A program made the position numbers and the translations under genes. A stretch of 64,000 nt of DNA from a virus. Taxonomy: Duplodnaviria > Caudoviricetes. The notes beneath the pieces were generated by a model, which saw only the letters and a list, made by a program, of their open reading frames with translations, ran no database searches and was not told where the DNA came from. Below, in pieces: positions 1,173 to 61,969 of the stretch. The stretch is taken from positions 1 through 64,000 of the IMG/VR virus record IMGVR_UViG_3300037313_001148. One strand, written 5' to 3'. Numbering within the stretch: position 1 is the stretch's first letter; the number at the start of each line of letters is the position of its first letter.

Positions 1173-1219
1173 CGACACTCCCCTTTCTCCGTCGTCCCCC
1201 TTGCCCGCGAAGCGGGCAA
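1173..1219 (+). repeat. dispersed motif+GNA hairpin element, copy 1 (intergenic)
   Basis: cgacactcccctttctccgtcgtcc + ttgcccgc-GAA-gcgggcaa. Confidence 0.9.
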
Positions 1220-1248
1220 CTCAGTTCCCATAAATTGCCACCTTGGCG

Positions 1249-1500
1249 TCACAGACGAACCTCAGAGCCATCAGCGATTGCTTGCATAGCCTTGAGTGCA
1301 AGCGGCCCTGGATTTCTTGTTCCTGCTTCGATCTTTTCTACCCATGACACACTATAACTCACATCGATATTATAGCGATCGTGGATGAAATTAGAAATAA
1401 TTGTGGCGAACTCCTGGGTGTTAATTGATCGGCCGAGCCGTTTTTTGAGAGTGGTTCGCCTCAGATCGCGAACAAACTTCTTATTTGATCTCGTCATCAT
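1249..1500 (-). CDS. XRE-family HTH protein
   Basis: VRDLRR..NTQEFA..SVSWVEKIEAGTRNP pattern; ATG at 1500 preferred. Confidence 0.6.
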   Translation of the reverse strand: MMTRSNKKFVRDLRRTTLKKRLGRSINTQEFATIISNFIHDRYNIDVSYSVSWVEKIEAGTRNPGPLALKAMQAIADGSEVRL

Positions 1501-1549
1501 GCTTATGACTCCGAAAAGAAGACTGGGCCGATCCATCGGCCCTTGATTA

Positions 1550-1990
1550 TTACATGATTTTTGATTTGTTCCACTGTTCAATAACGATACTGGCAATAGT
1601 TTTCCTGATATCGATTTCCTCCGCTTTGAACTTGCCTGTTGCGATATCCCCGATAAGCGCGGTAAGTTCTTCGATCTGACTCAATGCCTCTCTGTGTTCT
1701 TCCTGGAGAAGTTTCAAGGCTTGTGAATCTGCCTTGAGCCTTTCAAGGTCTTCGGCAGAGACACGCGGTTCTGTGTCGCTTGTGGCGTCGTTATTGCTTC
1801 CCTTTGGCTGCCTTCCCCTGACATTCGGATAAGGGATTTCAAAATCCCTACTGTACTCTCTGTAGGCAATCTCCGACACTCCAGCCCTTCTAGTCGCCTC
1901 GAATACGGTGTACCCGCTTTCGCGAAGACGGTTCACTTCCTGGACCAACGACTTCTTTTTACTGTCGCTTCTGCCTCGTCTTCCCATCAC
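1550..1990 (-). CDS. HTH-like DNA-binding protein
   Basis: VNRLRESGYTVFEATRRAGVSEIAYREY followed by a coiled coil; similar to the next gene. Confidence 0.55.
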   Translation of the reverse strand: MMGRRGRSDSKKKSLVQEVNRLRESGYTVFEATRRAGVSEIAYREYSRDFEIPYPNVRGRQPKGSNNDATSDTEPRVSAEDLERLKADSQALKLLQEEHREALSQIEELTALIGDIATGKFKAEEIDIRKTIASIVIEQWNKSKIM

Positions 1991-2658
1991 TCGCTCTCCA
2001 GAAACACAAGGGGCCGCTCGTATCGCCCTGTCCGGTCGCTTCCACAGGCTCCCGGCTCTCTGGGGATTTTCGATTTATGGATAGGAACAGGGCCGCTCCA
2101 ATCCCAGTCCTCCACGGTATCAACAGTTCCGTAGATCTTTGATCGATCTGGCGACAGGATCGCACCTCCGGAACTCACGATTGCGTAAACTGTTCCCCCT
2201 CTCAGAACGATTGCCTCTCGATCTCCGTTTCTCACTTCAACAAATGAAATCCTGTCTAATTCCTCCCTTGGTACGCTTGCTGTTACCTGAAAGTCCATGC
2301 CTGCCGCAATCTTTTTCTCGAGGATATGCCGACGCCTCGCATGTGCTTCGAGTGTTTGGGCCAGGAACTCGACCCCTTCCGTATCCTTGGCCATTTCGGA
2401 TCGCTTGAAGCAGATACGTTTTCGCGGCAGGGAATCCGGAGGATCGATTCCAAAGCTTTTCATGTATTTCCTATAAGTTGTTACATTTGTATGGATCTTC
2501 CTGCAAGATTCTTCGATCGTCATCCCTGACGATCGAAGCTGATTGACCCGAAGCACGATCGACCGCATTTTTTCCTCGGAAGGCTGGCCGCGTTTTCTCA
2601 CGAAATCATTCCTTATTTTTCTCGGTGTGCCCTTCGGACCACGCCGCTTACAACCCAC
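1987..2658 (-). CDS. HTH-like DNA-binding protein
   Basis: VNQLRSSGMTIEESCRKIHTNVTTYRKY, paralogous to 1550..1990; 4-nt overlap with it. Confidence 0.55.
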   Translation of the reverse strand: MGCKRRGPKGTPRKIRNDFVRKRGQPSEEKMRSIVLRVNQLRSSGMTIEESCRKIHTNVTTYRKYMKSFGIDPPDSLPRKRICFKRSEMAKDTEGVEFLAQTLEAHARRRHILEKKIAAGMDFQVTASVPREELDRISFVEVRNGDREAIVLRGGTVYAIVSSGGAILSPDRSKIYGTVDTVEDWDWSGPVPIHKSKIPREPGACGSDRTGRYERPLVFLESE

Positions 2659-3089
2659 GCGAGAAATGCGTCTCGCTGAATGGCTGGAAGCTTCCGATAA
2701 ACATTGGACAAAGAGTCAATGTTTTCTTCAACTTCCTTGTACTTGTTTTTGGTCGCCTCATTCTTGTTCCTGGCGATCGTCTCGAGAGTGCGAACTTGTG
2801 CCTGCCACTTCATTACCTCTTCTTCGCATTTCCATCTTTCGATGGAACCCAGATTGTTCCATGTTGAGCTATTCTCGCCTTTATTCTCCCGAAATCTGAT
2901 GACCAGGCCGATTGAAGCATAGCCGACCGGCTTCTTGAAGCCAACGTCTCTAAGCCCCTTTCCTTCAGTGGATTCCCCGTTGTTTGGTGTGTCCCCGAGA
3001 AGCCGATAGAAATGGAAGAACCCGCCGCTCGCTCCTTCGTGTTTGCCGATGTAGATTGCTCTATGCTCAATCTCTTTGGCATCCATCAT
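2613..3089 (-). CDS. hypothetical protein
   Basis: 158-aa ORF, aggaggagc RBS, coupled to neighbours. Confidence 0.65.
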   Translation of the reverse strand: MMDAKEIEHRAIYIGKHEGASGGFFHFYRLLGDTPNNGESTEGKGLRDVGFKKPVGYASIGLVIRFRENKGENSSTWNNLGSIERWKCEEEVMKWQAQVRTLETIARNKNEATKNKYKEVEENIDSLSNVYRKLPAIQRDAFLAWVVSGVVRRAHREK

Positions 3090-60128: not shown

Positions 60129-60131
60129 TCG

Positions 60132-60716
60132 ATGGCCGACACCACCCTCGTCATTGTGTATCCCACGGGCGTGAACCTCTACACTCAGATCGTGGCGCCG
60201 GACAACACGGTCTGGAACGGGTTGAATTACGTCGCTCTCTCGGTGGCATCATGGGCGACATTTGCGACTTCGACGCTCGAGACGCCAGCCTCGAGCGGAG
60301 TGTACGTGTGTCAGTTCCCCGTCAGTTCTCCGGCCGGTAACTATAAGTGGAGAACATATCTACGTGCGGGCGGATCTCCAGTTTCAAGCGACGTTTGTGT
60401 AGGAACAGGAAGTGGATTCTGGGACGGAACAACGTTTGGCTCCGTGAACTCAATTACCGATAAAGCTGGATTCGCTTTATCATCAACCGGAATCGACTCG
60501 ATCGTTATTGAGGCTGCCGCCGGAAGCCAACCTAATATCAATGCACGCCAGGGGATCGCCCTGGTTTTTAATGCGGCGTGCTACGGACTTCTCAATGGAG
60601 TCGGCAGCCCTTCGCCAGTCCAGATTCTCAATCCGGCCGGCACGGTCGTCAGAGCGACAGTAACAACTGACTCAGAGAACAATCGAACAAACGTAGAATT
60701 CAATAATCTTCCTTGA
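60132..60716 (+). CDS. virion structural protein (putative)
   Basis: 194 aa within the tail block. Confidence 0.55.
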   Translation: MADTTLVIVYPTGVNLYTQIVAPDNTVWNGLNYVALSVASWATFATSTLETPASSGVYVCQFPVSSPAGNYKWRTYLRAGGSPVSSDVCVGTGSGFWDGTTFGSVNSITDKAGFALSSTGIDSIVIEAAAGSQPNINARQGIALVFNAACYGLLNGVGSPSPVQILNPAGTVVRATVTTDSENNRTNVEFNNLP

Positions 60717-60717
60717 A

Positions 60718-61917
60718 ATGTATCCATCAAAATTATTTCAAGAATTCCCATTCCCATCACGGCTGTTCCCGCAGAGCGCAGGCTTTGGGGGAACAGTTTC
60801 CGATTACGCCCTCATTCTTCTCTCTGTCCAGGCAGCCCTTCAGAACGCCGCAAATCAGTTCGGCCTTTTTCCTGGCCGGCTAATTCCGCTTCAGCCGTAT
60901 CCTAATCAGCTTTTCCCAAAGTCTTCCCCACGATTCGGCAGCGTCCGGGCGCCAATCACACTCTACAAAAATCCGCCACCTCTCTCAGAAGGCCCGATCG
61001 CCTTCATCATGCCTGGTCCATCGAAATGGCTAAGCGGAGAGATCATGGGCGACGGCCGCTATTATTCCGGCTACGACGGAAGATTTACGATTAGAGTTGT
61101 CGATAAATCTATTCTAGACTACACAGGAAACGATACAATCCGGCTCACAGACGCCAGTACCGGACTGATGCGGACAGCCGATTTCATCGTGGATGTACTG
61201 GACATTGAATTCCCGATTGACTCCAACGGCAATCCGCTAACACAAGAACCTATTGTTCTAGAAACATATTCAAGTCCGCAAATTTTTGAAGGAGCCGGAG
61301 AATGGTGCGGAATTGATCTCACCTTCAAATTCCCCTGGACTCATTCAATATCTGTTCCTGAAGCGAACAACACCACGATCACGTCATCCCGGCCCTCTCC
61401 GACCGGAATGGCCGATCTTCTCTTGTCTGTCCAGGACGCTATCCTTCAGCAAGGATATATCAATAACGTTCAATCATCAATCGTTATTAGAAACGAACGA
61501 AGTTTCCCGCTAGCCGGCGGTCCCTACGTCAACATTAAGCCAGGTACATTTAGATCTATAGACCTAGACAAGTATGGAGCCGGCCGCAATTACGCCACAA
61601 TGGAAGGAAACTTCACAGTTTCTCCATACGTCCATAACTCTATGGATATTACGGGTCGCGCCGACCTGGCCCTGACCGTAAACAATCCGGCGATTTCCCT
61701 TTACTCTCTCTCTCAATATCTAGTCGAAAATCTACAACTCTTCTTCCTTGGATTTGGCGGCCAATTCCTCGCTGAGAATCCGCTTGCTCTGGAAGGAATC
61801 TCCGAGCCACGTTACTATAAGGGGAATTCGTCCTACGTCGGCTTGGATCTCAATTTCATCGTAAGATATCAGGAATTGCTCAGTCAAAATACCGACACTA
61901 TTTCCCCTATAATCTAG
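60718..61917 (+). CDS. two-domain tail-completion-like protein
   Basis: two similar halves (LLSVQ.A..GP..PG..G.GR.Y..G.FT..LD.TG). Confidence 0.55.
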   Translation: MYPSKLFQEFPFPSRLFPQSAGFGGTVSDYALILLSVQAALQNAANQFGLFPGRLIPLQPYPNQLFPKSSPRFGSVRAPITLYKNPPPLSEGPIAFIMPGPSKWLSGEIMGDGRYYSGYDGRFTIRVVDKSILDYTGNDTIRLTDASTGLMRTADFIVDVLDIEFPIDSNGNPLTQEPIVLETYSSPQIFEGAGEWCGIDLTFKFPWTHSISVPEANNTTITSSRPSPTGMADLLLSVQDAILQQGYINNVQSSIVIRNERSFPLAGGPYVNIKPGTFRSIDLDKYGAGRNYATMEGNFTVSPYVHNSMDITGRADLALTVNNPAISLYSLSQYLVENLQLFFLGFGGQFLAENPLALEGISEPRYYKGNSSYVGLDLNFIVRYQELLSQNTDTISPII

Positions 61918-61924
61918 CTGCCGC

Positions 61925-61969
61925 CGACACTCCTCCTTCTCCGTCGTCCCTTGTGCCGCGAAGCGGCAC
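61925..61969 (+). repeat. dispersed motif+GNA hairpin element, copy 9 (intergenic)
   Basis: cgacactcctccttctccgtcgtcc + gtgccgc-GAA-gcggcac. Confidence 0.88.

Follow-up and report, generated by a model that had tools for sequence, protein, structure and literature searches.

A strand-polarised family of motif-plus-hairpin elements in an uncultivated soil phage and its possible role in single-strand initiation

Introduction

Start signals on single-stranded DNA (ssDNA) are known from single sites, namely plasmid origins, the origins of ssDNA phages and the three promoters of phage N4. At the complementary-strand origin of phage G4, the DnaG primase acts on ssDNA coated with single-strand binding protein (SSB), at a mini-hairpin of the GCGNAGC type (PMC13037366). 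The IncQ plasmid RSF1010 carries ssiA and ssiB, single-strand initiation (ssi) signals that are read by the primase RepB' (PMC8567376; Geibel 2009). A signal of this type comprises about 40 nt of ssDNA, in which a specific single-stranded 5' arm is followed by a GAA-loop hairpin and a 3' tail (PMC8567376). The promoters of the N4 virion RNA polymerase are hairpins in the template strand. Their loop, G-G/A-A, is closed by C-G, and their stem may have any sequence that preserves pairing; next comes a 4-nt ruler, and the region to be copied is situated 5' of the hairpin (PMC4496689). These three documented hairpin-plus-tract systems all start synthesis on ssDNA (PMC13037366, PMC8567376, PMC4496689). 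Here we describe a family of elements, each a conserved motif followed by a GNA-loop hairpin, in the double-stranded DNA (dsDNA) phage record IMGVR_UViG_3300037313_001148 (Caudoviricetes), whose bases 1-64000 form the stretch first analysed, hereafter the window.

The record is a linear contig of 90,669 bp from IMG/VR, derived from an uncultivated soil phage, with an estimated completeness of ~78% (CheckV) and a G+C content of ~51%. About 75% of its genes are on the + strand, and its longest open reading frame (ORF) encodes 1186 aa. Megablast returned no match between the record and cultured phages, so that it has no close relative among them. Its large terminase is at most 31% identical to INPHARED records and at most 39% identical to the relatives gathered across IMG/VR, JGI and INPHARED, while a set of closer relatives (P0001-P0013 and P0271) shows 45-60% identity.

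Results

A fuzzy search combined with a covariance model (R1, trained on the eight copies whose stems have 8 bp) recovered 16 copies of the element in the whole record, 13 on the + strand and three on the - strand. The + strand copies score 46.8-81 bits with R1, their motifs starting at 1173, 10547, 19459, 28662, 33264, 39510, 44994, 49274, 61925, 68359, 70004, 75087 and 85938. The first nine of these had been listed by the initial annotation, all of them are present, and they are the nine exact matches to the core CTCCGTNGTCC; the other four lie beyond the window, at 68351-68407, 69996-70052, 75079-75137 and 85930-85988 in the same numbering. The - strand copies are weaker. Two are beyond the window, at 67943-68003 (42 bits) and 82217-82274 (36 bits), and the third occupies 44269-44327 (25.3 bits) within ORF 42964-45714. 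This last one had been suspected as an inverted copy at 44273-44318, and it is real if degenerate, with its motif on the - strand and a loop that reads GGA on the + strand. Below these 16 copies, the best match to the model reaches 10.8 bits. When one mismatch is allowed, the core occurs 16 times, compared with 4.3 +/- 2.2 times in shuffled sequences, and none of 100 shuffles attains this number. The shared orientation noted in the window extends to the full genome, where the bias is significant at 13:1 (p=0.002) as well as at 13:3 (p=0.02).

All 14 copies that were measured follow the same plan, in which a 5-nt G+C-rich lead-in is followed by a 25-nt motif, a spacer, a stem, a loop and, directly after the stem, a C, the whole element spanning ~50 nt. 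The motif, C[G/A]ACAC[T/C]CC[C/T]C[T/C]T[T/C]CTCCGT[C/T/A]GTCC, is rich in C and T. The stems are perfect and 7-10 bp long, as the initial annotation had described, and they begin with [T/G][T/C]G and end with GC. Its spacer of 2-5 nt did not hold, as the spacer measures exactly 3 nt, nearly all of them pyrimidines, in 14 of 14 copies once stems are taken at their maximal length; it is 2 nt in the degenerate copy 82217-82274. The loop said to be always C-GNA(A)-G is found in each of the 13 + strand copies, where C-G closes GAA (seven copies), GCA (four), GTA (one) or GCAA (one), while one degenerate copy has TCC instead.

Stem sequences differ between copies in a compensated manner, a property that the initial annotation had put forward as a check. 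Among the 13 copies whose loop has 3 nt, 77 of 77 cells at the seven inner pairs are Watson-Crick and no G-T pair occurs; six of the seven pairs have changed on both sides, and no shuffle matches the observed covariation score. The two outermost stem pairs covary as well. The same motif can be followed by different stems (compare 1173 with 10547), and a 3' flank of 10-15 nt is common to some pairs of copies (19459/85938 and 68359/70004). Since the motif has been conserved while stems, spacers and flanks drifted, these comparisons point to long-term selection on each copy. A second stem within the motif (CGAC/GTCG) was also considered and rejected, as variant copies break its pairing without compensation.

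The placement of the copies indicates that their polarity follows the genome strand and not transcription, because three + strand copies sit between leftward genes. Copy 1 (1165-1223, 79.5 bits), with a perfect motif at 1173-1197, the stem TTGCCCGC and a GAA loop, lies between the leftward ORFs 1249-1596 and 504-1019. Copy 2 (10539-10601, 53.1 bits), which has a perfect motif, the 10-bp stem TTGACCGGGC and a GAA loop, is located at the junction of the leftward ORFs 10600-10797 and 10226-10603. Codon-usage scoring assigns these two copies and the one at 68359 to junctions between - strand genes, so that coding potential bears out the earlier placement of the first two in a leftward-transcribed arm. 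Both are antisense to their neighbours and both carry the perfect consensus motif.

Five + strand copies are found within + strand genes, all in phase 2, where they are translated as [D/N]TP[L/P][S/P]PSS followed by a linker encoded by the hairpin. Four of them are in the window and had correctly been described as sharing one frame and lying in linker regions; the fifth, at 75087, behaves likewise. Copy 4 (28654-28712, 79.8 bits) is within ORF 28123-28881 and reads DTPPSPSS... in translation. Copy 5 (33256-33314, 76.1 bits) is within ORF 32704-33543, for which no homologues were found, upstream of the large terminase gene. Copy 6 (39502-39560, 77.5 bits) falls in the portal-fusion gene 37936-41496, in a linker past the Mu-type portal domain (aa 525-542), and copy 7 (44986-45044, 75.5 bits) in ORF 42964-45714, from aa 677. 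The reading frame around the intragenic copies shows positive coding potential on both sides, and the copies occur at domain boundaries, one past the portal domain and another past a 307-residue phrog_1366/AAA_24 domain. P0271, which at 53% identity is the closest homologue of the portal, differs in having a shorter linker of another sequence that lacks the element-encoded peptide.

Two of these host genes have features of their own. The portal gene (+ strand) joins a Mu-type portal to 2H-phosphoesterase (LigT-like) and ADP-ribosyltransferase-like regions, a fusion that it has in common with P0271. The AAA_24/phrog_1366 protein encoded at 74038-75633 (L009:11038-12633) has 531 aa, compared with ~307 in its family, and its extra C-terminal part starts right past the in-frame element, as if at an old junction of genes or domains.

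The remaining + strand copies occupy tight intergenic gaps. Copy 3 (19451-19509, 77.1 bits; loop GTA) is intergenic, with an ATG at 19521 lying 16 nt on. Copy 8 (49266-49327, 52.3 bits), with a 9-bp stem and the 4-nt loop GCAA, stands ahead of ORF 49346-49888. Copy 9 (61917-61973, 61.4 bits), with a 7-bp stem, follows ORF 60718-61917 and precedes the next gene, its 51 nt filling most of a 63-nt gap (61918-61980).

Successive + strand copies are separated by 1.6-12.7 kb, on average by 7.1 kb (coefficient of variation 0.447), and only 0.2% of random placements are as regular (P=0.002). The base composition of the contig is asymmetric in the same strand-bound manner, C exceeding G on the + strand in 27 of 30 windows of 3 kb. 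At four-fold degenerate sites, + strand genes have a skew of -0.11 and - strand genes a skew of +0.04 on their own coding strand, that is, again more C than G on the + strand. Because the + strand is C-rich at these sites in the genes of both strands alike, the asymmetry indicates one strand-specific process that spans the whole contig without a switch point. A single opposed pair exists among the copies, 67943-68003 on the - strand and 68351-68407 on the + strand, with the motifs facing and the hairpins outward. This arrangement resembles that of ssiA and ssiB, and by that analogy it could mark an origin.

Taken with the three + strand copies antisense in leftward operons, the regular spacing, the gene-independent C-richness of the + strand and the lack of G-T pairs support the earlier proposal of a role at the DNA level and not at the mRNA level. 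Decay is most advanced in the three copies on the opposite strand. Together with the pairs that close it, the loop reads GC-GNA-GC, and hairpins of the GCGNAGC type are very stable in DNA (PMC13037366). At the RNA level, no Rfam family matches the window at the gathering threshold, and a known RNA family was rejected on these grounds. An intrinsic terminator was rejected as well, given that no T run follows the stem (the tails read CTCAG, CAGAG, CACAG and similar); copy 49274 alone passed a loose terminator scan. Nor does the purine-rich complement act plausibly as a Shine-Dalgarno sequence, with no start codon after the leftward copies, and a Chi-like site was dismissed since the element is too long.

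The closest described counterpart that we found is ssiA, which we read from an IncQ1 plasmid (L357) located through a published RepB' primer. It consists of CCTTTC, CCCCTACCC-GAA-GGGTGGGGG and CGCGTG. Both ssiA and the phage element have a C/T-rich 5' arm that abuts a G+C-rich stem of 8-9 bp, a GAA loop closed by C-G and a trailing C, and the element thus shows the RepB'-type order of arm, GAA-loop hairpin and 3' tail. In ssiA, this arm is bound by RepB'. The plasmid signal acts on one strand only, as the element would too. They differ in that the ssiA stem contains a T-G pair, whereas the element stems contain none. The G4 origin shares the GCGNAGC-type mini-hairpin, at which primase starts on ssDNA, but it is a single origin in an ssDNA phage, with three hairpins and a host primase.

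The initial annotation suggested searching the genome for an RNA polymerase, a primase or a nickase. A primase candidate emerged, while no T7-like RNA polymerase and no HNH or HUH nuclease was found in the phage. The candidate is the 242-aa ORF 81333-82061 (+ strand), which has no Pfam match and was recognised through look-alikes of its ESM Atlas model. The model of this exact sequence has a pTM of 0.88, and in structural superposition it matches, at TM 0.83-0.86, N-terminal domains from primase-helicase fusions whose partners are DnaB_C, VapE, D5_N or DUF3987. In one cluster close to this model, RepB_primase is present in 18% of members. Just downstream, ORF 82149-84374 (+ strand) encodes a D5-like helicase that belongs to a very large family, the longer members of which have an N-terminal Prim-Pol domain. 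We regard ORF 81333-82061 as a candidate primase, a lead provided by structural modelling and not a proof. The same two-gene arrangement of a primase-like gene and a helicase gene occurs in another contig, L353. Right after its helicase gene, at L353:11540-11733, there are nested inverted repeats with arms of 24 and 31 nt, which may be an origin.

Outside this record, the family was not encountered. An exact-pattern scan of IMG/VR with the strict motif gave 0 matches, and with an 18-nt core there were 35 viral matches and at least 120 in genomes (IMG/VR and GTDB), all of them single and none followed by the hairpin; we consider these to be chance occurrences within coding DNA of the GGAGGAGG type. 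In 1.67 Mb surrounding relatives of the terminase (at most 39% identical), the covariance model had no match, and 20 loci with helicase relatives contained no GNA-hairpin repeat family. Conservation in related phages, which had been put forward as a check, was therefore not found in the loci searched. As searched, the motif-plus-hairpin family is absent from IMG/VR, the GTDB genomes and the 1.67 Mb of relatives' loci.

One distant terminase relative (36% identity; L095, IMGVR_UViG_3300025935_000252) carries a different hairpin family. Five identical, co-oriented cassettes are found within 14 kb (L095:704-11935), each reading GCGGAC-GGCACAC-GGA-GTGTGCC-TGCTACTTT and thus also having a C-GGA-G loop. 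Three of the five stand directly ahead of a ribosome-binding site and a start codon, and judging from this position the cassettes look tied to transcription.

Elsewhere in the record, the leftward arm contains a gene for an ArdC-N plus zincin metallopeptidase protein (3697-4614, - strand), whose family we take to be the ArdC anti-restriction proteins of conjugative plasmids, presumably with ssDNA-binding activity. Its neighbours encode a UvrD-like helicase (6154-7923) and a pentapeptide-repeat protein (11560-12285).

Discussion

We tentatively propose, by analogy with RSF1010, that the elements are ssi-type single-strand initiation signals acting on the + strand. The initial annotation had offered priming sites, hairpin promoters, programmed nick sites and ejection or packaging signals as mechanisms. 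Priming sites fit best, because the layout of ssiA matches and a candidate primase-helicase pair is present, and ejection or packaging received no specific support. According to this proposal, the + strand would be exposed, or the palindrome extruded, and the C-GNA-G mini-hairpin would resist SSB and mark the site. A primase would then bind the conserved pyrimidine arm together with the foot of the stem and start a new strand, and such strands would grow leftward on the + template. With 13 co-oriented sites ~7 kb apart, one particular strand could be made double-stranded, in the way that the lagging arm is when replication is unidirectional or of the rolling-circle type. The most likely reader is the candidate primase of ORF 81333-82061 acting with the D5-like helicase of ORF 82149-84374.

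Signals of the ssi type would account for the polarity and the even spacing, for the persistence of copies within long genes, for a hairpin of DNA character and for the fact that opposite-strand copies have decayed. The retention of copies in long genes that lack intergenic room supports this interpretation in particular, and in-genome Okazaki-type starts may be kept in-frame inside structural genes to hold their spacing. The bias in gene orientation, unlike the skew, fits a simple bacterial model in which the + strand is the lagging-strand template.

Several observations weigh against priming. The skew runs opposite to the bacterial deamination model, the + strand being C-rich. Known ssi signals occur once or twice per origin, ssiA and ssiB forming one opposed pair at oriV, and not 13 times along a genome as the co-oriented copies do here over at least 86 kb; furthermore, the specific 5' arm has 6 nt in ssiA but 25-30 nt in the element. 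As for the reader, PF16793 and PF09250 do not match ORF 81333-82061, BLASTP detected no sequence similarity between the phage ORF and RepB', and a single-sequence fold of the 242-aa ORF reached a pLDDT of only 29. In L353, the one relative with the same gene pair, 14.5 kb contain no repeat family of this kind. It may also be that the record, at its present completeness, lacks the true reader protein.

An alternative that we consider unlikely is that the elements serve as programmed sites of single-strand nicking, like the localized interruptions known from phiKMV-like phages, tf and T5 (PMC3517423; Kulakov 2009); late in infection or in the course of packaging, an enzyme of the phage would cut the + strand inside the motif. 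Phage tf, which has convergent transcription units, carries 14 top-strand nicks, and the nick sites of tf, phiKMV and T5 are kept on one strand whatever the direction of transcription (PMC3517423). The element behaves in this way too, with 13 of 16 copies, including all well-conserved ones but one, on the same strand. When its motif is aligned with the nick consensus of phiKMV, CGAC-N5-CCTA/CTCCGG, 15 of 18 positions agree and one gap is needed. This likeness is weak, as 3.1% of composition-preserving shuffles do as well and the element was compared with several known motifs. The phiKMV genome (AJ505558; L174) has exact matches to the nick consensus at 6314, 13986 and 24128, likewise on the sense strand and between genes; they coincide with features annotated as 'putative bacteriophage specific promoter'. 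What an enzyme that nicks duplex DNA leaves unexplained is the covarying perfect hairpin with its fixed loop. Known nick sites span 7-19 bp and share no hairpin, with one nearby at only one of the three phiKMV sites, and the phage has no detected HNH or HUH(Y1) nuclease domain.

Promoters specific to the phage, used by its own sigma factor or by a modified host polymerase and yielding transcripts with a protective 5' hairpin, are distinctly improbable; equally so is the corollary that the copies in leftward operons would produce antisense RNA shutting off early genes. The phage does encode a sigma-70-family protein (25677-26567, + strand; 296 aa, regions 2 and 4), five or six copies end 12-40 nt ahead of a + strand start codon, and an ECF-like pattern, [G/A]AC-N16-CGTC, can be discerned in the motif. 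Moreover, the look-alike sites of phiKMV were first annotated as phage promoters, and the distant relative L095 has its co-oriented hairpin cassettes just ahead of ribosome-binding sites. Yet the sigma factor is closest to RpoD/RpoS (best NCBIfam match MzaA), which led us to reject an ECF-type promoter, and because its 3' half is G+C-rich and devoid of A, the motif offers no plausible, meltable -10 element of the A/T-containing kind seen in sigma-70 promoters. The leftward operons are served by one decent - strand copy while three + strand copies point against them, and five copies are inside genes. The covariation of the outermost pairs and the lack of G-U pairs fit DNA better than RNA.

Region 2.4 of the sigma factor reads FSTYATHWIRRYL, which under the alignment that we assume would replace W433 and Q437 of E. 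coli sigma-70. Ordinary sigma-70 promoters occur elsewhere in the phage, a further point against a promoter role of the element. Three near-consensus examples (TTGACA-17-TATACT and others) lie within 150 bp at 50075-50220 on the + strand, where only short minus-strand ORFs are called, and from its sequence this stretch is likely a strong regulatory region.

A hairpin promoter of the N4 type would share much of the geometry. In common are the 3-nt G-N-A loop (sheared G:A) with its C-G closure, the variable but paired stem, a single-stranded ruler of 3-4 nt and, 5' of the hairpin on its own strand, a region that would be copied. The element thus looks like an N4 template-strand hairpin, which has a G-purine-A loop closed by C-G, although its stems have 7-10 bp compared with 5-7 bp in N4. 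In N4, by contrast, sense transcripts arise from three promoters located at the left end of the genome, whereas products templated by the + strand would here be antisense to ~75% of genes, and the copies are not placed to read early genes in sense. In addition, the element conserves the 25 nt 5' of the hairpin, where copying would take place. We regard an N4-type promoter as doubtful. The PF00940 family of T7-like RNA polymerases has no match in the 90.7 kb, in a search that has no positive control, the control genomes having given no match either.

It is also distinctly improbable that the elements are a selfish miniature repeat (REP/MITE-like) spread by single-strand transposition without a function for the phage. 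Copies do sit in-frame in the linkers of five genes, as Rickettsia palindromic elements likewise do, the closest portal homologue lacks the peptide, and none of the other sequences searched contains the family. Single-strand transposons also insert with an orientation bias linked to replication. The copies are, however, old and diverged in stem, spacer and flanks, and nevertheless they have kept the 25-nt motif, perfect pairing, the 3-nt spacer and the trailing C; because these conserved parts persist amid the divergence, selection at each site is favoured over recent spread from a master copy. They are spaced more evenly than random placement would give, the three on the opposite strand have decayed furthest, and no Y1/HUH transposase was found in the phage (PF01797). 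Repeats of the REP/RAYT and IS200/IS605 kinds, furthermore, combine a conserved 5' tetranucleotide with an imperfect palindrome, while the element has a 25-nt arm and perfect palindromes. Other DNA-binding roles, such as packaging or defence decoys, are conceivable.

Returning to single-strand initiation, its fuller form would be a dsDNA phage with about a dozen hard-wired, hairpin-marked priming sites and its own sequence-specific primase, one strand being replicated discontinuously, and this we hold to be possible but doubtful. Hairpin-marked initiation and recognition signals are known, but in the literature searched we found no description of a genome-wide, even, one-strand array in a dsDNA phage. 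The element is compact (~50 nt), permits mutational predictions for loop, stem and strand, and has a candidate reader encoded beside a helicase, and it could thus be tested in vitro even though the phage is uncultivated. If the proposal is true, it would provide a defined substrate for a primase family of unknown specificity and would explain how the phage tolerates conserved non-coding DNA inside protein linkers. It would also represent a new way to organise replication or, should the elements be nick sites instead, a new way to organise nicking.

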